This document shows, piece by piece, positions 65 through 51,649 of a stretch of 64,000 nucleotides of DNA; position 1 is the first letter of the stretch; the number at the start of each line of letters is the position of its first letter. A program made the translations under genes and the position numbers. The stretch is from a virus, in IMG/VR virus record IMGVR_UViG_3300045988_084189, positions 1 through 64,000 of that record. One strand, 5' to 3'. The notes under the pieces are model-generated. The model saw only the letters and a program-made list of their open reading frames with translations. It searched no databases and was not told where the DNA came from.

Positions 65-466
65 ATGAAGGATTTTAAGGAAATGGAAAGTATTGAACTC
101 AAGGATTTTGGCGTTCGTGTTAACCCATATCTAACTTATGCACAAGTTCAGGCCATTGCTAATAGTGTCTACACTCTAAAGAGTTGGGCAGAGCGTGAAC
201 AGAATATTGATATGTTGCTGCTTATCTATGCGACCAACCTAACGGCTGAGGAAGTCAATAACTACAATCATGAACATTGGCTCAAGTCGGGCCTGATTGA
301 CTGTGTTAAGGCGAATGTGCTAAATTTCTATGACATTGAGAAGGCTATCAAGTATGAGGAAAGCCCAATGCGCACTCTCATGAAGTTGGCTAATGAAATG
401 CCTGAATTTAGCAAGAAGTTGAATGAATACCTAGAGGTGGCAAAGAATGCCAACAGCAAGAAGTGA
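65..466 (+). CDS. hypothetical protein (position suggests tail assembly chaperone)
   Basis: 133-aa ORF with an AAGGAG-like RBS upstream. It lies shortly upstream of the tape measure gene. No motif recognised. Confidence 0.4.
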   Translation: MKDFKEMESIELKDFGVRVNPYLTYAQVQAIANSVYTLKSWAEREQNIDMLLLIYATNLTAEEVNNYNHEHWLKSGLIDCVKANVLNFYDIEKAIKYEESPMRTLMKLANEMPEFSKKLNEYLEVAKNANSKK

Positions 467-980
467 GCAAGAGTTAAGAAATCTGTTGCGCAGCCCTATC
501 CAAAAGGCTATTAACTATGTACTTGATAAGATATATGACGAGAATATATCAGTAGTACATGATGTGGTCTATATGGCGTATAGCCCAGAAGATTATAATC
601 GAACGGGTGACCTATATAGAGCATGGAGCACTGAATCTAAGTCAACATCATCTGCGGCCCAAGGCGAGTTCAAGTACGATTATAGCAAGATGAGCATAGG
701 TAGCACCGACCCGCAATCATCCAATTTTGCACAGCATATTGGTGTTGGCGGCGATTTTTATGGACAGGATGCGCGGCCTTATCTAGCTGAACTTATCTAT
801 CAAGGCGCGACTGGTTCATTGTTTGGCGATGGAGCATTTAGAAAGCAACGTGACGCATGGACTGAACTAAATAAGCGCATAGGTAGACGCAAGATGAAAC
901 AATGGATGAAAGAAGGCATGGAGGCGGCTGGGCTTACTGTACAGATGCACAATACGCCGCTTCATGTCGAGGAAAGTTAA
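447..980 (+). CDS. hypothetical virion-module protein
   Basis: 177-aa ORF with a GAGGTGG RBS 6 nt before the ATG. It overlaps the previous ORF by 20 nt in the +1 frame. No motif recognised. Confidence 0.45.
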   Translation: MPTARSEQELRNLLRSPIQKAINYVLDKIYDENISVVHDVVYMAYSPEDYNRTGDLYRAWSTESKSTSSAAQGEFKYDYSKMSIGSTDPQSSNFAQHIGVGGDFYGQDARPYLAELIYQGATGSLFGDGAFRKQRDAWTELNKRIGRRKMKQWMKEGMEAAGLTVQMHNTPLHVEES

Positions 981-981
981 T

Positions 982-1485
982 ATGGTTATATGTGGACTTG
1001 ATGCAAGCACCTCTTGCACTGGATGGTCTATATTTGATAATGGTGAACTCATTGCATATGGCGCAATCAAGCCAAAGGGGGATGATTGGCATGATAGGGT
1101 AATGGGGCTTACTATGGAATTATCAAAAATATTTAGGCAGTATCAACCCACTATTATCTATGCAGAGGAAGTGCCACTAAAGAAAGGCGCATCCACTATA
1201 GAGAAATTGGGCGCAGTGCAAGGTGTGATTTTAGCATTATGCGCTGGCTTCAAGATAAAGCCATGCTTCTTGATGCCAAGTAAATGGCGTGGCGACCTTA
1301 ATCTTTTTGATGGCACAAGGGCCGGTTTACAAAGAGATGTTCTGAAGAAAAAAGCCATAGAGATGGCGAATGAAGAATTTGGCCTCGAATTGGCATGGGT
1401 TGCCCCAAGTAGCAAAAAGAATGAGGATGATTGCGCAGAAGGAATCCTCATAGCCTACTCACAAATTAAGAAAAAGGGAGTGTGA
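982..1485 (+). CDS. RuvC-like Holliday junction resolvase
   Basis: The N-terminal ICGLDASTSCTGWS matches the RuvC-type catalytic Asp/TGW motif, and size (~167 aa) fits. The ATG at 982 follows GAGGAAAG and is preferred to the track start at 964. Confidence 0.7.
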   Translation: MVICGLDASTSCTGWSIFDNGELIAYGAIKPKGDDWHDRVMGLTMELSKIFRQYQPTIIYAEEVPLKKGASTIEKLGAVQGVILALCAGFKIKPCFLMPSKWRGDLNLFDGTRAGLQRDVLKKKAIEMANEEFGLELAWVAPSSKKNEDDCAEGILIAYSQIKKKGV

Positions 1486-1488
1486 TGA

Positions 1489-1914
1489 ATGGCTAAAAGT
1501 TCTAACTACTCGGTTCTCATTGACGCCCAGTTGAATTTGGACGATATTGAGAAAAAGTTAAAATCTAAAAAATATGAAATTCCTCTTGATACATCTAGTA
1601 TAAAATCTGGTAAAAAAGATATTGATGATGCCGTCCAATCCACCAAAAATCTAAATGATGCTGGGCAAGACCTTGAGCTTACATTTAATGTGGCGAATGA
1701 GGTATTTAACAAATTTACCTCTGCTATCAAGGATATGGCCGGTCAAGTATATGAGCTTGATGACGCATTAACCGAGTTCAAGAAGGTATCCGACCTAAAT
1801 GGACAGGCGCTAGATGAATACGCAGATAAACTATCTAAAATTGGTCAAACAGTTGGCCGCACCGGTAAACCAAATCGGTCTGAGCCGGTATGTTGCGATG
1901 GTAAAGCAGCATAG
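1489..1914 (+). CDS. tail tape measure protein, N-terminal fragment
   Basis: The sequence ...LTEFKKVSDLNGQALDEYADKLSKIGQTVGRTGKP... looks like a tape-measure N-terminus and is continued by the start of ORF 2931..7640. The reading frame stops 9 codons into the intervening cassette. Confidence 0.65.
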   Translation: MAKSSNYSVLIDAQLNLDDIEKKLKSKKYEIPLDTSSIKSGKKDIDDAVQSTKNLNDAGQDLELTFNVANEVFNKFTSAIKDMAGQVYELDDALTEFKKVSDLNGQALDEYADKLSKIGQTVGRTGKPNRSEPVCCDGKAA

Positions 1915-2195
1915 AGAACAGCCCCTAAACCCTTGAAAGCCTCAAGAGCCTTATCACTACAACATGAGGATGAGATATGCCTGAGTGTGATTATTAACAA
2001 TGAATTAGTGCGAAAGCAGAAAGACGATAAGGATGATTCCATGGTTGAAAAGCCTAAAGAATTAATGATAAATAATGTATCATAAAAGGGCAGATTGGGC
2101 GCGAAGTCCTGATGAGGGATGTGTCAATCGAATATACAGGGCGACCCTCCAAATATATAGGGTGAAGAAATATTCAGGAAGGGCTTGAAAACCCC

Positions 2196-2224
2196 TTGAC
2201 AAATTATCTAATATGTGCTATTGT
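2196..2224 (+). promoter_or_regulatory. sigma-70-like promoter inside the cassette
   Basis: ccccTTGACAaattatctaatatgtgcTATTGTatag: -35 consensus, 17-nt spacer with TGc, and a weaker -10. It sits about 27 nt upstream of the first small ORF. Confidence 0.45.
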
Positions 2225-2250
2225 ATAGATACTTAAAGGAGGTATCTATT

Positions 2251-2445
2251 ATGGCTTCTGTATTTTTACTGCTTGTGTTACTACCAGTCATGTTCTACAT
2301 TTGGATTGGAACAATCATCAGTTTGTTCAAAAAGCCCAAAGATAAGAAAAATCAATCATATCATATTGATAGTCGAGCCAAAGATGAGGAGCGGCGAATC
2401 AATGAGTGGGGTTTAGATGATGATTGGCGTTGGGGGAAATTATAA
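2251..2445 (+). CDS. small membrane protein, paralog 1 of 3
   Basis: The ATG follows AAGGAGG+8 nt. It has an N-terminal TM helix, a basic linker and a C-terminal ...NEWGLDDDWRWGKL. The track start at 2215 is an upstream alternative codon. Confidence 0.6.
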   Translation: MASVFLLLVLLPVMFYIWIGTIISLFKKPKDKKNQSYHIDSRAKDEERRINEWGLDDDWRWGKL

Positions 2446-2645
2446 TGGAGAATGTGTATATGGCGATAATTGTTGTGGCCGTACTCGTATTCGCAGTCCT
2501 TATTTATCTTTGTTCCATGAGTGGCTATACAACAAAGCGCAAAAATCCAGATGATTATATGGAAATCAATAAGAGGCAACGAGATAAGGATATATCCAAA
2601 ATTAAAGCGCAGGATGAATATGACAATAAGTGGGGTGTGCTATAA
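2445..2645 (+). CDS. small membrane protein, paralog 2 of 3
   Basis: TAATG stop/start overlap with paralog 1. It has a TM helix and the C-terminal motif AQDEYDNKWGVL. Confidence 0.6.
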   Translation: MENVYMAIIVVAVLVFAVLIYLCSMSGYTTKRKNPDDYMEINKRQRDKDISKIKAQDEYDNKWGVL

Positions 2646-2914
2646 TGTGGGTCATAGTGATGCTCATACTGATTCCATTGGTTATATGGTTTATATGTGA
2701 AACGGGTATGCCGCTTGTCGTCATCCTCATTCTTTCTATTTTTGCATTTCCTTTACTTGTCTTACTTAATTCTATTATGAGAAAATGGGTAAGCGATGGT
2801 AGCTATGATGTAAATCTGCATGAACAGCAAATAAATCAAAAACAGAAAGAGCATAGAATAGCACAAGTCAAAGCCCAAGAAAAGTATGACAATGATTGGG
2901 GATATATTAGATAA
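2645..2914 (+). CDS. small membrane protein, paralog 3 of 3
   Basis: TAATG stop/start overlap with paralog 2. It has two TM helices and the C-terminal motif AQEKYDNDWGYIR. Confidence 0.6.
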   Translation: MWVIVMLILIPLVIWFICETGMPLVVILILSIFAFPLLVLLNSIMRKWVSDGSYDVNLHEQQINQKQKEHRIAQVKAQEKYDNDWGYIR

Positions 2915-2930
2915 TTTATAACCGTCAGAG

Positions 2931-5900
2931 ATGGTTGAAGCTGCAACGGAATTTAGAAAGAACGGATTCAATGATTCCGATGCGGCAACATTAGCAAAAA
3001 CTGCTACGATGTTCCAGAACGTCTCGGATGAGGCTATTTCCGCTGGCGATTCTGCATCGTTTATAATTTCTCAGATGATTGCATTTGGCATTGAGGCTGA
3101 AAATGCACAGTCAATCATCGATAAAGTCAATGAAACGGCAAATCGTTTTTCTGTTTCATCTGGCGATTTATCTAAAGCTCTAGGTATTGTGGCATCCACA
3201 TCGTCTGCGATGGGCAACTCTATTGACCAGACTCTTGGTGTTGTCACTGCAATTACAGAGCAAACTCGTAATGCAAGTAAATCTGCAAGAGCGGCCAATA
3301 CAATTTTTAGCCGGTTGGCTCAAGTTGTAGACGAGAATAGTGATACTGGTAAAAAGCTTACAGAGATTTATAATAACCTTGGTATTGCGCTATACGACAG
3401 CTCTGGACAGATGCGCAGTACCTATGATATTCTAGCCGATCTTGCATCAAAGTGGGATTCACTAGATAAGAATACTCAACAATATATAGCTATTACTAGT
3501 GCGGGTACAAATCAGTTAAACAATTTCCTCGCGCTGATGAATAATTTCGATCACGCAGCAGAAGCAACAGCGACATCTATCAATTCAGCTGGTTCAGCAA
3601 TGCGTGAGAATGAAGCATATCAAGAATCGCTCGAATATCAAACTAATAATCTTAAAGCAACATTCCAAGATTTAGCAAATAACGTTATTGATAAGCAACT
3701 TATTTCAGCATTATTAACCCTTGGCGACGCTTTCTTAAAAGTGGCAAATACTGGTCTTGGCACATTTATTACTAAAGTTGGATTACTAGCTGGTACGGGT
3801 TGGGGATTGAGTAGCTTATTAAAAGTTAGCCACATATTGCCAACCATTGCTACACAGTTTAGTAATTTTGGAGCAGTTATATCCCTTGTAGCAGAGGGTT
3901 CTGGTACGTTTGGTGCTGCGATTAGTGCTGCCGGTGGTGCGGCAAGTGTCGCATTGCCAATATTCTTAGCTGTAAGTGCGGCTATTGTAGGTATCATCGA
4001 ACTTGCTAATGCTCTTGAAGAAAATGCCCACAAAGCAGAAAAGCAGCTACAAGACCTAAGAACGCAAATCGATGAGATGGAAGACCCGGTTAGCGAATAT
4101 AGCAACTTAAAGAGCCGAGTTGATGAGCTTACTGAATCTGAGAAAATCCGTCTTGGTGTTCTTCAATCACAACTTGATACACTTAAAGAACAAGAGGAAG
4201 TTATAAGCCGCCAGCAGCTTGCAAAGTGGCAAAAGGGACAAGTTGAAGACCAGACCACATACGTCACAAATTATGACGATTATGGGTATGGTGTAACTGA
4301 GGCATATACTTATAATCAAGCGGCTGATTCTCTAAATAATTTTAGAGAAGCATATCTTGATTTAGAAAGAGATAAGAAGAACGGGCAAATTAGCAATTCT
4401 GAATATGTTTCAAGTCTTCAATCTCTAATTGATAAGAACCAGACAACCATTACTAACCTCAGAGATCTAAAGACGGCATATGAGGAAACTGGCGATGCCA
4501 CATATAAACTCAATGAGAATCAAGAGCGGTTCTTGTTGTGGGCTGATGCTGCTAGTGAAAAATTAGCGACTAATGCAACCAATGTAGCAAATGCGGTACA
4601 AGCTGAACAAGACGCAGCAGATGGTGTTGAAGATGCCATGTCTCAAATTGAGGTAGCCACCTATGACACTTCGACTGCTGCAGCTCAATTGACCGCATCT
4701 CTGTTTGACCAAAATGGACAATTGACTACAGCAGCACAAACAGCGTTGGCGGTTGATGGGTCAATGGTATCTTTGGAGCAGTCTGAGCTACAAGCACAGC
4801 AAGCCGCCGCACAGGCTAATTACGCTAATCTGGTTCTTCAAATTCAACAGGTTGGTGCAGCAGCTGCTATTACATCTAGCCAATTACAGTCGATGATGGC
4901 TATGGCTGGTGTTGCCACTGGTGGAGCATCTATTGGCTCTTCTAGTTCTAATCTACAAAGAACATATAAGGAATTAACTGGTAAAACAGCACAATCTAAC
5001 GAATCGGCTTATAAGTCTTGGTTGACCAACTATCTTGCAGAAAAAGGTCAAGCCAATTACGAAAAGATTATGTCTGAAACCCAGAAAAAACTTGATGAGT
5101 TAAACAAGAATGTCCCATCAGGTGTTGGTGGTGGTGGCGGTTCCTCCAAAAAATCTGCCGAAGAAAAAGCTGCAGAAGAAGCTGAAAAGCAAGCCAAGAA
5201 AGCCCAGCAAGCCCAAGAAAAGGCGGCTAAACAATCTCAGCAAGCATATGAATCAGCCGCAAAATCTGCTGAACAAGCCGCTCAAGAAGCCGCCCGTGCG
5301 GCAGAGCAAGCCGCTGAAGAAGCCAAGCAGAAAATCCTTGATTCTATTCAAGAGCTAAAAGACGCATCTGATGATTTCTGGGATAGCAAAACAGACGCTA
5401 TTGAAGAAACCAATAAAGAGCTTGACCGTCAAAAACAACTTGAGGAAAAGCTCAAAGCCCTAGAAGAAGCCAAGCAAAAGAAAATCCTGCTCTATAAGAA
5501 TGGCCAATTCCAATATGATAAGGATTATGGCACGATTGCCAAAGCTCAAGCCGATTACGAGGAAACCCGTGATAAGATTCAGCGTGAACGTGAGCTAGAG
5601 CAACTTAAAGAAATGAAAGACAACGCCAATGAGATATTCAACGAAATGAAGGATATTGTTCAGAATGGCGGCGATGTCACCCAAGAGATGATTAATAACT
5701 GGCTCAAAAATATGGCCGCATCCGGGGCTGATTATTATGATAGCAATAAGAATCTGCTGAATGAATGGCTGGATTGGGCTAAAAATGCGCTGCAGACATA
5801 TGGTCAAGGCGTGGTTGATGCGGTCAATGGCTACATTTCAACAAGTAGCTTGATGAGCAACGGAACGTATGGCAGTAATGCACAAGGCATGGTAGCTACA

Positions 5901-7640
5901 GACACCAACGGTGCTAGGTATCTTGCAGATAGAAACAGCGACAACCCTCTATATTGGGACAAAGACGGCAATTTTGTTGGCTTTACCAAGGCATTCTGGA
6001 TTGATGTGTTTGATACACAGATAAAGAAGGGGCAATTTGGTGATTATAAGACAACTGATGCTTGGTTGGGCAATCTACCCGGTACGTCTATTTTCGACGA
6101 TTGGGAAGAGGTCTTCAAGTATTGGTCTAGCCAAGAACACGCAGATATCTATGCTCTTCAAGATATGGTTGATAGATTCGATGCCGCCAAACAGGTATTC
6201 CAATATTATAAGGATATATTTAAGAGTCTTGGATACGATGAGTATGCCAAGATGGCCGAGCAGTATGATAATATAGATTCTAGCAAATATTCTCGTATGG
6301 CTTGGCAAATGTCTATGGTGCAACACCCTGACGACCCGTTTGGCTGGCGTAGTTATGAACCGGCTTGGAGGGGTACGCGCAGAGAGGATACAGCCGAACT
6401 ATGGCAAACAATGAACGATATCTTGGATATGATGTGGGCCAACAATTATCAGGGCAATGCTTATGAGACGGCGCTTGGAGAGGCTGAACGAGCTAGTAAG
6501 CGCGATTGGCATATCAATCGAATGGATGAGTCCGACCGGTATGAATATGCTACGTTCGACCTTGACAAGTTAAAAGCGGCTCTCGAAGAAAACGAAGAAG
6601 CCATTAAGCAATTAAGCGAAAAATGGTTTGAAGCTGCAACCGACCTTGAACGACAAGCTATAGCCGTTGAGGCAGAATCTCGCCGCAGATTCCGTGACCT
6701 TGGTTATGCTCAACTTGGCATTGATACCACAGCTCAATCTGAGGCTGAACGTGCGGCTAATCGTCAAACAAGCGGTAAAACATTCGATGAGATGCGACGT
6801 AATAAAAAGTTAGCTAATAATGTCGATGATATCAATAAGACCCTAGAGAAGGTCGAGAATGGTCAAGCTATTAGCCAAGGTTATATCACTAAAGCAAGCG
6901 ATTACATCTCTAAGAAGATAGAGGAGAACTCAGAAAAATGGTTTACTCTATATGACCAGACTGAGAAAGATAAGTTGCATCAACAAACAGAAGAATTGAG
7001 AGCATTGCAAGAAAAATTGCAGAAAGCTAATGATCTAGCTGAAATCAATAATCTGCTTGTACACGGTACGGGCTTATTGCCTAATGAGAAAGCCGACTTT
7101 GAAGACGAAGACTGGAAAGCCGACAAGAAATATGAGGACTGGGTGCGCGAGGCTGAAGACTTAGACGATACGGCTGAGGATATCAGACGGCAGATGGAGT
7201 TAAACGCACAGCGTTGGTTTGATGCTGATGAGAAGACCAAAGATGAGTTACACAGAGCCAATGAAGAGTTGGCTGAACGGTTGGCTCAAGAAACCGGTAC
7301 CAACCTATCTTATTCAGGCGCAACCGGTAAATGGTCAAAAAATGCCACAGGTACGCGCAATTTCAGAGGCGGGCTATCCTTAGTTGGTGAGCGTGGCCCT
7401 GAAATGCGCATTCTTGGTCAAGGCGATAACGTCATCCCGGCTAATCAGACGGCTAATCTTTGGAAGTGGAGTAATACAACGCCACAGCAGATGCTAACAA
7501 CTCTATCGGCAAGAAGCGGCGGTAGTAATACAAGCTATGCCTTTGACGTATCGCGCATTGAGCTACCTAATGTAACAGATGCTAAATCGTTCGTTCAGGG
7601 ACTCAAGAATTATGCGCTACAGTATAGCTATAAGCGATAA
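2931..7640 (+). CDS. tail tape measure protein (main part)
   Basis: 1569 aa. The N-terminus EAATEFRKNGFNDSDAATLAKTATMFQNV resembles a TP901-type tape-measure core. It also has a hydrophobic Gly/Ala segment, a long A/Q/E/K coiled coil and a C-terminal GGLSLVGERGPEM. No RBS lies upstream of the ATG. Confidence 0.85.
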   Translation: MVEAATEFRKNGFNDSDAATLAKTATMFQNVSDEAISAGDSASFIISQMIAFGIEAENAQSIIDKVNETANRFSVSSGDLSKALGIVASTSSAMGNSIDQTLGVVTAITEQTRNASKSARAANTIFSRLAQVVDENSDTGKKLTEIYNNLGIALYDSSGQMRSTYDILADLASKWDSLDKNTQQYIAITSAGTNQLNNFLALMNNFDHAAEATATSINSAGSAMRENEAYQESLEYQTNNLKATFQDLANNVIDKQLISALLTLGDAFLKVANTGLGTFITKVGLLAGTGWGLSSLLKVSHILPTIATQFSNFGAVISLVAEGSGTFGAAISAAGGAASVALPIFLAVSAAIVGIIELANALEENAHKAEKQLQDLRTQIDEMEDPVSEYSNLKSRVDELTESEKIRLGVLQSQLDTLKEQEEVISRQQLAKWQKGQVEDQTTYVTNYDDYGYGVTEAYTYNQAADSLNNFREAYLDLERDKKNGQISNSEYVSSLQSLIDKNQTTITNLRDLKTAYEETGDATYKLNENQERFLLWADAASEKLATNATNVANAVQAEQDAADGVEDAMSQIEVATYDTSTAAAQLTASLFDQNGQLTTAAQTALAVDGSMVSLEQSELQAQQAAAQANYANLVLQIQQVGAAAAITSSQLQSMMAMAGVATGGASIGSSSSNLQRTYKELTGKTAQSNESAYKSWLTNYLAEKGQANYEKIMSETQKKLDELNKNVPSGVGGGGGSSKKSAEEKAAEEAEKQAKKAQQAQEKAAKQSQQAYESAAKSAEQAAQEAARAAEQAAEEAKQKILDSIQELKDASDDFWDSKTDAIEETNKELDRQKQLEEKLKALEEAKQKKILLYKNGQFQYDKDYGTIAKAQADYEETRDKIQRERELEQLKEMKDNANEIFNEMKDIVQNGGDVTQEMINNWLKNMAASGADYYDSNKNLLNEWLDWAKNALQTYGQGVVDAVNGYISTSSLMSNGTYGSNAQGMVATDTNGARYLADRNSDNPLYWDKDGNFVGFTKAFWIDVFDTQIKKGQFGDYKTTDAWLGNLPGTSIFDDWEEVFKYWSSQEHADIYALQDMVDRFDAAKQVFQYYKDIFKSLGYDEYAKMAEQYDNIDSSKYSRMAWQMSMVQHPDDPFGWRSYEPAWRGTRREDTAELWQTMNDILDMMWANNYQGNAYETALGEAERASKRDWHINRMDESDRYEYATFDLDKLKAALEENEEAIKQLSEKWFEAATDLERQAIAVEAESRRRFRDLGYAQLGIDTTAQSEAERAANRQTSGKTFDEMRRNKKLANNVDDINKTLEKVENGQAISQGYITKASDYISKKIEENSEKWFTLYDQTEKDKLHQQTEELRALQEKLQKANDLAEINNLLVHGTGLLPNEKADFEDEDWKADKKYEDWVREAEDLDDTAEDIRRQMELNAQRWFDADEKTKDELHRANEELAERLAQETGTNLSYSGATGKWSKNATGTRNFRGGLSLVGERGPEMRILGQGDNVIPANQTANLWKWSNTTPQQMLTTLSARSGGSNTSYAFDVSRIELPNVTDAKSFVQGLKNYALQYSYKR

Positions 7641-28555: not shown

Positions 28556-28786
28556 TTATTTTTCAATCATTTTCTTTAATTCTGCAAATAGCTCTCTGCC
28601 ACAAATAGGACAAGTAGAATCCAGATCAACTACATATTTTTCATCTACAATTAAGCCGCAATTTGGACATTTAATAGGCGCATATTTTAGAGGATGCTCA
28701 ATCCGTTTGCGACGATTTCTTTCTGCTCTGCTCAATTTCTTCTTTCTCCTTATACTTTGCTCTATATTCATCTCGTTTAGCTTCAT
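28556..28786 (-). CDS. small basic zinc-ribbon protein
   Basis: It contains KKKLSRAERNRRKR followed by CPNCG...CPICG. The ATG at 28786 follows GGTGGA+9 nt. The ORF overlaps the 3' end of the upstream gene by ~89 nt. Confidence 0.4.
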   Translation of the reverse strand: MKLNEMNIEQSIRRKKKLSRAERNRRKRIEHPLKYAPIKCPNCGLIVDEKYVVDLDSTCPICGRELFAELKKMIEK

Positions 28787-29795
28787 CACCATCATTCCAC
28801 CATTTGACATTGATGTAGTCTAGCACTTTAGCCATACCAAGTCCCCTATCAGGAATCCACATACCAGAATCATCATATTTACCGCCACGCATACAGTAGT
28901 TGTAGAGTTGAGGATTGATAGTAGCTAATGTTTGGAATTTATTAGGCTCTTTTTCAAGGTGACAACCGAACCCACAAAAGATACAACCTGTGCGCTTTTG
29001 CTTGGTTGTAGTATATACGCCATCCTTTTCTACAATATCACCATAGATTTCTTTGACATATGGGATATTATATTTGACAATATAATGCAATACATCTGAT
29101 TTAGTCCAAAACGACAATGGATTACTGGTTGGTCTATCCTTATCAAATGCGTTACAACCAAACTTGAGCCAATTCGATTCGCGCTGAGCACTCTCATCTG
29201 TCATAGTGCCGATAAATGGATGTAAGCCAGTTTCATGCTCAAATCGCTTTGATGGGTTCTTTTTCATTATATCACAGCATTTGTCACTTACTGGAATATA
29301 ACAAGATGGCTCGATAAACTTGAGCCATTTTTTAGAGATTTTACCACGGTTATATTTGTTCCCATTAAGCCGAATTTGCTTTAGCCGTTCGCTCTTAGAC
29401 GTCCTATATTCTTGAATAAATGCAGCTTGCTCTTTACTGATAATAGGGTAGCCATATTTTTCAATGACCTTAGCAAATGAGACATGATGCCACACCTTCA
29501 TTTTTCTATCGTAGATCGCTGGCTTTAATACAATAACATTTGGCTTACCCATGATGAAATCACGTAATTCAGGATATTCAAGCCCTGTATCGCAATATAC
29601 ATCTGGAACATCTGGATATAATGAATGGACAAGATGACTAAGGACAGTAGAATCAACACCACCTGAGTTTGAGATATACACATCTCCGTTCCAATGTTCA
29701 TACCATTCTTTGATTCGTTGTTTAGACGCAATAATCTTTGCCTCTAACGGTAACGCTTGCTTTTGTCGCAAATCACCAATAGTCATTTTGCTCAA
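28698..29795 (-). CDS. PAPS reductase / PP-loop ATP pyrophosphatase family protein
   Basis: PP-loop NSGGVDSTVL and a C-terminal Cys cluster GCIFCGFGCH. Confidence 0.7.
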   Translation of the reverse strand: MSKMTIGDLRQKQALPLEAKIIASKQRIKEWYEHWNGDVYISNSGGVDSTVLSHLVHSLYPDVPDVYCDTGLEYPELRDFIMGKPNVIVLKPAIYDRKMKVWHHVSFAKVIEKYGYPIISKEQAAFIQEYRTSKSERLKQIRLNGNKYNRGKISKKWLKFIEPSCYIPVSDKCCDIMKKNPSKRFEHETGLHPFIGTMTDESAQRESNWLKFGCNAFDKDRPTSNPLSFWTKSDVLHYIVKYNIPYVKEIYGDIVEKDGVYTTTKQKRTGCIFCGFGCHLEKEPNKFQTLATINPQLYNYCMRGGKYDDSGMWIPDRGLGMAKVLDYINVKWWNDGDEAKRDEYRAKYKEKEEIEQSRKKSSQTD

Positions 29796-50289: not shown

Positions 50290-50366
50290 TGGTAGCTCAG
50301 GTGGAATTCGAATCCACACTTTACGGATTTTGAATCCGCTCCCTCTGCCGATTGGGGTACTGAGCC
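50290..50366 (-). tRNA. tRNA, anticodon CAA (nominally Leu) with a short variable loop
   Basis: GGCTCAG-TA-CCCC-AATCGGCAG-AGGG-A-GCGGA-TTCAAAA-TCCGT-AAAGT-GTGGA-TTCGAAT-TCCAC-CTGAGCT-A-CCA. It folds into a cloverleaf and encodes CCA. Confidence 0.7.
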
Positions 50367-51200
50367 ATATTCAATCTCAAGCCGACTTCCTGCCTCATAG
50401 CTATTTCTAGCATCGGCTCGTGAATGATGTTTACATAATATCCTTATATCACCTTCGTCGTTACGTTTTTGCATGGATGCTAACGTGGCACGATTGGGCG
50501 CGACCCCAATTCTCTAGTCTGTATCTGCCGCTTCTCAAACTCTGCGCAGACCCCAGTGCGGGCGTGATATAGATTTGACGGTTATCTTCAAATCCGGTCG
50601 GATATTATATTATTTGTCAATCCCAATCCCTTTTATTATGCCGAACAGATTGACTAGTGCGCCCTACTTGGCATTAGGCAATTACGCCATTTATGCTTAT
50701 CTCATTTGTCTTACGCACGTTCCCTTGCTCGCTTTTTTATCAAAGACCGACATACCACGTAGGATATGCGGTTAGCTTGGTTTGCCTATCGCACGAGCAA
50801 TGATAGGTTTTTTACGACAATATGGTAGCTATGACCCGGTTTCATGGTCAATTACGAAGAGCAGTTAAAAGTTGTTACCTTTTACTTAAAATCTCTCTTC
50901 AACCTCTTACGAGGGACTAAGCCGTATCATTCGGATTTCCCGACTCATTTCGACTTGCGGATTTGTTACCTACCGCTGCACTACCTGCTAACCTTTCTAT
51001 GTTAGCCCCGACCCGTCTGTTCAACTATCGTTAGCTATTGCCGAAGTGTTATTGCACTCTACTCCATATGGAAGACCTATTTGATCGTTCGAGTGCAACA
51101 TATGATGGCTGTTCATCAAACTCCACTTAGCTGTTTCGTAATGCCCATCTGAACTATGTCAGGACTCAGCGATTTCAGCACCATCATCTTTACATTCTCA

Positions 51201-51573: not shown

Positions 51574-51649
51574 TGGTCGAGGGTAAGTGATTTGAACACT
51601 TGTAGCACGATTATAAGTCGTGTGGACTAGACCGCTGTCCGAACCCTCG
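51574..51649 (-). tRNA. tRNA-Ile (anticodon UAU)
   Basis: CGAGGGT-TC-GGAC-AGCGGTCTA-GTCC-A-CACGA-CTTATAA-TCGTG-CTAC-AAGTG-TTCAAAT-CACTT-ACCCTCG-A-CCA. All stems are fully paired. Confidence 0.85.

Follow-up and report, generated by a model that had tools for sequence, protein, structure and literature searches.

To our knowledge, phage group I introns carry either homing endonuclease genes or nothing. The T4 nrdD (sunY) intron has its core at the 5' end and its open reading frame (ORF) downstream of P9, in a peripheral loop; its 3' splice site, several hundred nt away from the core, is returned to it by long-range pairing. The T4 intron ORFs have their own promoters inside the intron. HK97 gp15 is a moron, a small inner-membrane superinfection-exclusion protein encoded among tail genes. 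Group I introns in tape measure protein (TMP) genes are known at three sites in prophages of the Bacillus cereus group (TMP-IVS1/2/3; PMC2504315), and such an intron in a phage TMP gene is not new in itself. Here we describe an interruption in the TMP gene of a large siphophage from the gut, one of the SPbeta/Enterocloster-phage type, found in 64,000 nucleotides of the IMG/VR virus record IMGVR_UViG_3300045988_084189 (positions 1 to 64,000, hereafter the window; features are on the + strand unless stated). The segment 1867-2924 is very probably a self-splicing group I intron, with a cargo of one promoter and three small membrane-protein genes.

In the window, the gene appears as two pieces. 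An ORF of 141 amino acids (aa; 1489-1914), with the C-terminus ...IGQTVGRTGKPNRSEPVCCDGKAA*, resembles the N-terminal part of a tape measure. A second ORF of 1569 aa (2931-7640) opens with MVEAATEFRKNGF and has no Shine-Dalgarno sequence upstream. This second ORF starts mid-domain, since its match to PF10145 (PhageMin_Tail) begins only at profile position 19. The two ORFs, the mid-domain start and the missing ribosome binding site (RBS) agree with an earlier note on this DNA, which had also proposed a removable cassette of 1046 bp at 1885-2930. Homologues were gathered by a search with the fused protein, and those that cross the gap were aligned (alignment A1). Uninterrupted homologues read ...VGRT[G/T/A]SEMVEAATEF..., with no counterpart of KPNRSE. 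The interruption is real, and deleting 1885-2930 is arithmetically in frame, but as a biological junction this deletion would leave KPNRSE, six residues present in no uninterrupted homologue.

The true insert is 1867-2924, a length of 1058 nt, with the 5' end AAACCAAAUCGG and the 3' end ...UAUAACCG, the last base being the omega-G at 2924. Exon 1 (1489-1866) has 126 codons, the last five being GTT GGC CGC ACC GGT (V G R T G), and ends at T1866; its frame continues for 16 codons into the intron, up to a stop TAG at 1912-1914. Exon 2 (2925-7640) starts at T2925 and has 1571 codons, beginning with TCA GAG ATG GTT (SEMVEAATEF...). The spliced TMP is predicted to have 1697 aa. When this protein was used in tblastn, the window was split at residue 126/127, and six close relatives were split at the identical codon. 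An intron-less allele was found in one relative (L069; relatives are named here by locus labels). It reads GTTGGACGTACTGGT-TCAGAGATGATT and is collinear with the window junction 1866|2925. Removal of 1867-2924 yields VGRTG-SEMVEAATEF, a layout identical to that of L069, and the nucleotide junction becomes GGCCGCACCGGT|TCAGAGATGGTT, with the exon 2 side also given as TCAGAGATGGTTGAAG. The tryptic junction peptide predicted from exon joining is TGSEMVEAATEFR. The earlier note had suggested a comparison with related phages for an uninterrupted tape measure, and such genes exist, both as continuous homologues and as the L069 allele. The nearest cultured relatives by TMP, Enterocloster bolteae phages of ~100 kb with ~40% identity, also have no interruption at this site.

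A conserved 27-nt core motif was used as a query and retrieved 55 viral contigs plus one genome contig. Among the retrieved contigs there are 45 distinct cores, of which 26 diverse ones were aligned (A5). The insert is far beyond chance, because the 55 viral contigs carry the same element. In all copies, according to tblastn and a survey of 3' ends, the insertion point is one codon of one gene.

U-1, the omega-G (G2924) and the reading frame are all satisfied by the pair 1866|1867 and 2924|2925. The earlier note had reported no such pair, and missed it because its boundaries were 18 nt (5' end) and 6 nt (3' end) too far 3'. P1 is formed by 6 bp between the exon end ACCGGU (1861-66) and the guide sequence GCCGGU (1884-89), with the wobble U1866.G1884 at the cleavage site. 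P10 pairs UCUGA (1879-83), immediately 5' of the guide, with UCAGA in exon 2 (2925-29). P1 covaries with the exon in relatives, as in ACUGGU/GCCAGU and AGCGGU/GCCGC. The family provides natural variation at the cleavage-site wobble pair (A5 columns 29/47), which is U.G in 19 of the 26 members, C.A in 2 (L010, L054), C-G in 2 (L012, L048) and G-C in 3 (L008, L023, L024). C.A is able to take the same wobble geometry as U.G. As for P10, it has a different sequence in L013 and is still complementary, while some members (L023) have it only in weak form or not at all. At the 3' end, all members with a located end (30/30) have a G directly before TCNGA(A/G/C/T)ATG.

Downstream of the guide sequence, the canonical core could be traced helix by helix, spanning 1861-2197 with P1 included. 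The P2 hairpin (1890-1912; AUGUUGC/GCAGCAU, loop GAUGGUAAA) has compensatory changes in 5/7 pairs. P3 (GCCC 1921-24 with GGGC 2139-42; region 1921-2142) encloses the P4-P6 domain. This domain contains P4 (1930-32/2097-99), P5 (1939-41/2089-91), P5a (1949-55/2026-32), P5b (1962-69/1980-88), two GAAA hairpins, P5c (2009-18) and P5d (2043-54), a variable hairpin (2065-83), and P6 (2100-02/2121-23 plus 2106-10/2116-20). P5c is the GAAA tetraloop that the earlier note had seen at ~2010, in the form of a UGC-GAAA-GCA hairpin at 2009-2018. P7 (GAAUAU 2130-35 with AUAUUC 2170-75) is pseudoknotted with P3. P8 (2144-48/2159-63), J8/7 (GAAGAA) and P9 (2179-83/2193-97) complete the core, which ends at 2197.

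The canonical model, including the P3/P7 pseudoknot, was scored by pair counting on the 26 members. In the full model 93.8% of cells pair, compared with 28-44% when the 3' partners are slid, and both-sided (compensatory) changes occur in 36/67 pairs. The covariation score is 0.376, against at most 0.08 when slid, and was reached by none of 500 shuffles. RNAalifold, unaided, returned P1, P2, P5, P5a, P5b, P5c, P5d, P6, P7, P8 and P9, with double changes in 32/59 pairs. P3, P7, P8 and P9 all covary, and P3 alone appears as GCCC/GGGC, GCUC/GAGC, GAAGUG/CACUUC and CCUCC/GGAGG. The P7 pair G2130-C2175 is invariant (26/26 members), with the third P7 pair covarying; this invariant pair is where canonical group I introns have their guanosine-binding pair. 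The group I layout raised in the earlier note, in which ORFs follow a structured 5' part and precede a short 3' end, is therefore borne out by a P1-P9 core with covariation.

Some other pairings were tried and rejected. The first P4 model, made by hand (CCCUU/AAGGG), has AAUGG as its 3' strand in L010, L045 and L054, uncompensated, and a competing GCC/GGC helix (P5) covaries. CCUUAUC/GAUAAGG, also considered as P4, was re-assigned to P5a from the alignment to the Rfam group I model, RF00028. A hammerhead reading of CUGAUGAG (2109-2116) had no Rfam match, and the motif is the conserved P6b loop, the stem of which covaries. This P6 loop, UGAUGAG (2109-2116 in the window), is invariant in all members, within the also invariant GCGAAG-NCN-UGAUGAG-NGN-UGUGUCAA. 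It is over-conserved for a hairpin loop and may be a lineage-specific tertiary-contact motif.

Between the end of the core (P9, 2197) and the omega-G there are 727 nt. A long-range helix of 14 bp, with perfect complementarity, connects the two ends of this distance. Its 5' strand is AAAUUAUCUAAUAU (2201-2214) and its 3' strand is AUAUUAGAUAAUUU (2904-2917), 7 nt before the omega-G. The ORFs therefore occupy the terminal loop of what resembles a P9.1 helix. A closing helix was found in every subfamily, each with its own sequence (...UUAUUUAAUAU/AUAUUAAAUAA..., UUUAGUCUUGA/UCAAGACUAAA, AAUGUAUUGAC/GUUAAUACAUU), and with compensatory changes throughout. The 3' strand overlaps the final codons of the third small ORF (ORF c) together with its stop codon. 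The 5' strand is the same DNA as the spacer of the predicted promoter, so that a single DNA stretch doubles as promoter spacer and RNA helix strand.

From these pairings, splicing of the intron is predicted to proceed as follows. In the late pre-mRNA, the exon end ACCGGU would pair with the guide sequence to give P1, with the U.G wobble where cleavage is to occur. Once folded, the core P3-P9 (1921-2197) would bind guanosine at the P7 pair G2130-C2175, and cleavage would take place after U1866. P10 and the 14-bp helix 2201-14/2904-17 would then bring the omega-G2924 to the site, and exon ligation would give ...GRTG-SEMVEAATEF..., that is, a continuous TMP of 1697 aa. The host RNA polymerase would probably transcribe the cargo genes separately from the late operon. 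Transcripts from the internal promoter would be without the ribozyme core and act simply as mRNA; they could not form the closing helix, because its 5' strand is upstream of the predicted start near 2231.

The promoter is predicted from its motifs as sigma70-like (2196-2224), with TTGACA at 2196-2201, a 17-nt spacer and TGcTATTGT at 2216-2224, and would be expected to fire from within the intron. Among 24 sites in 8 kb it shares the highest match (10/12) and is listed first, and every family member retains both TTGACA and TGnTAnnnT. It is followed by an RBS, AAAGGAGG (2235-2242), and by three small ORFs, which the earlier note had rightly placed after the structured 5' part. ORF a (2251-2445) has 64 aa and ends in ...RINEWGLDDDWRWGKL, ORF b (2445-2645) has 66 aa and ends in ...KAQDEYDNKWGVL, both with one predicted transmembrane (TM) helix, and ORF c (2645-2914) has 89 aa and two TM helices, ending in ...KAQEKYDNDWGYIR. 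Stop and start overlap as TAATG at the a/b and b/c junctions, which marks the three ORFs as translationally coupled on the basis of sequence. In each of them, one or two hydrophobic helices at the N-terminus are followed by a basic stretch and by a charged tail with a [KE]xQ[DE]KYDNxWGxI-like end; the C-terminus is predicted to be cytoplasmic. Between one and three such ORFs are found behind the same promoter in every family member, and no member has an endonuclease within the intron.

The small ORFs are real genes under purifying selection, with a ratio of nonsynonymous to synonymous changes (dN/dS) of 0.02-0.4, at dS up to >1. A profile search found 934 homologues of the small proteins, all unnamed and without a Pfam domain; the three that were sampled (P0131, P0150, P0161) are all in a first TMP intron (3/3). 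No terminator for the cargo unit was found. In terms of function, a moron-like membrane role, for example superinfection exclusion against tape-measure-mediated DNA entry, is a weak guess, made by analogy with small membrane proteins near TMP genes (HK97 gp15).

The same module is also present elsewhere. L069 contains a different group I intron (5584-6498) at another TMP site, after ESLEA, with a core of 47.2 bits (E 2.9e-10, RF00028). The L069 RF00028 member at 5524-5886 bears the same promoter and small-TM-ORF module, consisting of TTGACA-17-TATAAT, an RBS and two small TM ORFs with the end QDDYDNYWGxIDWHD, and its closing helix is CAAAAUUUUAC/GUAAAAUUUUG. The module is therefore common to unrelated ribozyme cores.

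A search with group I covariance models had been proposed in the earlier note, and its outcome is mixed. RF00028, with a gathering score of 50 bits, has no match in the window, but the model does find the homologue L008 (779-1102, aligned with the window in A5) over its full length, below threshold, with 31.5 bits and E 2e-6 to 4e-5. It also finds sibling introns in the same TMP gene of relatives, at 47-95 bits. Because the same model finds these siblings and one homologue, the miss on the window is a sensitivity limit of the model for this lineage and no contradiction of the structure. The RF00028 alignment of L008 agrees on the placement of P3, P4, P6, J6/7-P7, P8, J8/7-P7' and P9. The window has UCAAUCGAAUAU...GAAGAAAUAUUC, compared with UUCAaAGACUA...gAAGAUAUAGUC in the RF00028 consensus. 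RF00028 members in relatives (L008, L045, L056, L023, L069) have the P3-P9 architecture in common with the window lineage, and share J6/7-P7 (UCAAnnGAnUAU) and J8/7-P7' (GAAGAnAUAnUC) with it. The window lineage differs from them in its short P4/P5, large P5a-d extension, absence of P7.1/P7.2 and unusual conserved P6 (GCGAAG-NCN-UGAUGAG-NGN-UGUG), and falls below RF00028 detection. The window lineage is a divergent branch of a known class, the group I introns in TMP genes. One sibling core matches introns annotated as Intron_gpI in phiCD211, as well as regions under or adjoining the endolysin gene in Staphylococcus phages.

The sibling introns have features of their own. In L008 (IMGVR_UViG_3300045988_085338), the TMP gene at 462-7363 has six introns in its first ~520 codons, and two neighbouring introns are parted by a 24-nt mini-exon (1415-1438), TCTGAAATGGTTGAAGCAACTACT, which encodes SEMVEATT. 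Large ORFs are present in sibling introns of L001 (7038-8120), L007 (5643-6791), L008 (1701-2501 and 4997-6103) and L069 (4298-5425). These ORFs have 266-382 aa, CxxC zinc-ribbon pairs and a common C-terminal ...IEVDGxQH...LLRIPYWE motif, and Pfam gave only weak matches for them (Zn ribbon, DUF2726, RAP). Possibly, they make up an uncurated family of homing endonucleases of the PD-(D/E)XK type.

Several points weigh against a self-splicing group I intron in the window. RF00028 had no match in the window in the gathering and E<=10 scans, including a scan of a 406-nt slice, and 12 other loci of the same intron family were also missed. P4 and P5 have just 3 bp each in the model, with no covariation in P4, and the minimum free energy of the single sequence is only modestly better than that of shuffles (z = -1.9), so that folding the window alone tells little. 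The G-1 paired with C at the cleavage site in three members is atypical for group I introns. The window intron has no homing endonuclease, as its three ORFs (64-89 aa) have no nuclease family match, and a comparison of the small proteins with Pfam, PHROGs, NCBIfam and PADLOC gave nothing usable.

Two of these points, the missing RF00028 match and the lack of a homing endonuclease as a sign of an active mobile intron, also speak for the alternative that survives best. Here the element would be an intron that has decayed or does not splice, or else a plain moron insertion, and TMP would be made as two polypeptides, one of 141 aa (1489-1914) and one of 1569 aa from ATG 2931. This ATG does open a long ORF, and gene callers give two separate pieces in every relative. 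We nevertheless find this unlikely. There is no RBS before 2931, and Met 2931 corresponds to the conserved Met in the SEM motif, which is also present in intron-less homologues. The read-through tail KPNRSEPVCCDGKAA belongs to the intron, and its conservation is that of an RNA (P1 loop, guide sequence and P2), not of a protein. Covariation in 36 of the 67 pairs, the invariant G-binding pair, the omega-G in 30/30 and a P1 that covaries with the exon would not be maintained in a non-functional RNA. A genuinely two-piece tape measure, one of the options in the earlier note, is unsupported. The moron option holds in part, in that the cargo is moron-like, with its own promoter and small ORFs, but it is enclosed by a ribozyme loop instead of being inserted naked.

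An IStron or composite mobile element, in which a group I ribozyme is fused to a transposon and inserted with a target-site duplication, is very improbable. The layout does resemble an IStron, with the ribozyme 5', the ORFs 3' and a very short 3' tail. The two flanking 9-mers, CGGTCTGAG (1876-1884) and CCGTCAGAG (2922-2930), are located as the earlier note had them, and are identical at 7/9 positions. Their reading as a target-site-like duplication was rejected, since they are accounted for by the splice-site pairings. The first 9-mer (CGGUCUGAG) contains the P10 strand UCUGA and the first G of the guide sequence, and the second (CCGUCAGAG), at the 3' splice site, contains the omega-G and the exon 2 bases that follow it. 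The two resemble each other because the P10 strand in the first pairs with the exon 2 bases in the second. Furthermore, no transposase, no IS200/IS605-type gene and no ORF >94 aa were found within 1867-2924, the small ORFs belong to no family in Pfam, PHROGs or NCBIfam, and the insertion point of the element never varies in gene or codon.

Other generic ways to rejoin a split gene have nothing specific in their favour and are barely credible where group I features already account for the data: a group II intron would need GUGYG...AY ends (the 5' end is AAACC), and no domain V, reverse transcriptase or Rfam group II match was found; 1058 nt far exceeds any known ribosomal hop for translational bypassing; and there are no intein motifs for protein-level joining.

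Returning to the group I intron and its cargo, co-conversion with a neighbouring intron is a plausible route of spread, because several relatives have an intron with a large, possibly nuclease, ORF 24 nt downstream. The window has no such large-ORF neighbour 24 nt downstream. As a tentative and rather doubtful proposal, a widespread phage intron lineage could have swapped its homing endonuclease for a self-promoted membrane-protein operon. The intron would be a splice-out 'safe harbour' for a moron in an essential gene, and the module would have moved between unrelated cores at different TMP sites. If so, with the proteins blocking tape-measure-mediated DNA entry by competing phages or otherwise helping the carrier, the intron would persist via the fitness of its cargo and not via homing.

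In terms of the surroundings, the window encodes Pol III alpha, DnaB, primase, RNR, RecD-like and RecJ-like proteins outside the tail region. In relatives, an SPbeta Yom-type tail module (YomU, YomW, YomX, YomN) is upstream of TMP. A blastn search with 1400-3400 against 50,697 phage records gave no match. Directly upstream of TMP, within the tail module, the window has a RuvC-like resolvase gene (964-1485, +; PF02075, E 4e-6), a position kept in L065, L070 and L072. A RAGATH-33 RNA (RF03102) was found at 50923-51035 (-), with 139.9 bits, which exceeds the gathering score; it is flanked by phage tRNA-Leu(CAA) at 50290-50366 (-) and tRNA-Ile(TAT) at 51574-51649 (-). Finally, the replication module contains a PAPS-reductase-domain protein (28698-29795, -; PF01507), which might have a link to DNA modification.

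When compared with T4 nrdD (sunY), the window intron is alike in its layout of core and ORF loop and in its predicted intron-internal promoter. The T4 ORF is the homing endonuclease I-TevII, whereas the window has three small membrane-protein genes, and the host gene and the intron lineage differ as well. With morons of the HK97 gp15 type, the window cargo has in common small membrane proteins, a promoter of its own, here a predicted one, and a location in the late structural region near TMP. It differs from HK97 gp15 in having no demonstrable sequence relationship and no terminator; the promoter and ORFs are conserved as a unit, but inside an intron loop rather than between genes.

The closest system is that of the B. 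cereus TMP introns. These (PMC2504315) are self-splicing group I introns, as is predicted for the window, and interrupt a siphophage TMP at conserved codons. There are several insertion sites per gene in both, with P1/P10 fitted to each, and some of the B. cereus introns are likewise without a complete homing endonuclease (PMC2504315). No sequence similarity between the two was detectable by blastn against phages. The parts of the B. cereus account considered here mention no cargo except homing endonuclease genes (PMC2504315), whereas the window family always has promoter-driven membrane-protein genes. A look at the literature on phage group I introns located no precedent for membrane-protein cargo, and this absence is no proof of novelty.

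For annotation, the consequence is that every public contig examined has the gene called as at least two fragments, with the small ORFs labelled 'hypothetical'. An intron family on 55 viral contigs, with 934 protein clusters, that invariably has promoter-driven membrane-protein genes under purifying selection suggests that introns can carry accessory genes of the moron type within essential genes, and may be maintained by the benefit of their cargo rather than by homing. Set beside the known systems, what appears to be new is a consistent cargo of membrane-protein genes that has its own promoter and no endonuclease, and that different intron lineages share.

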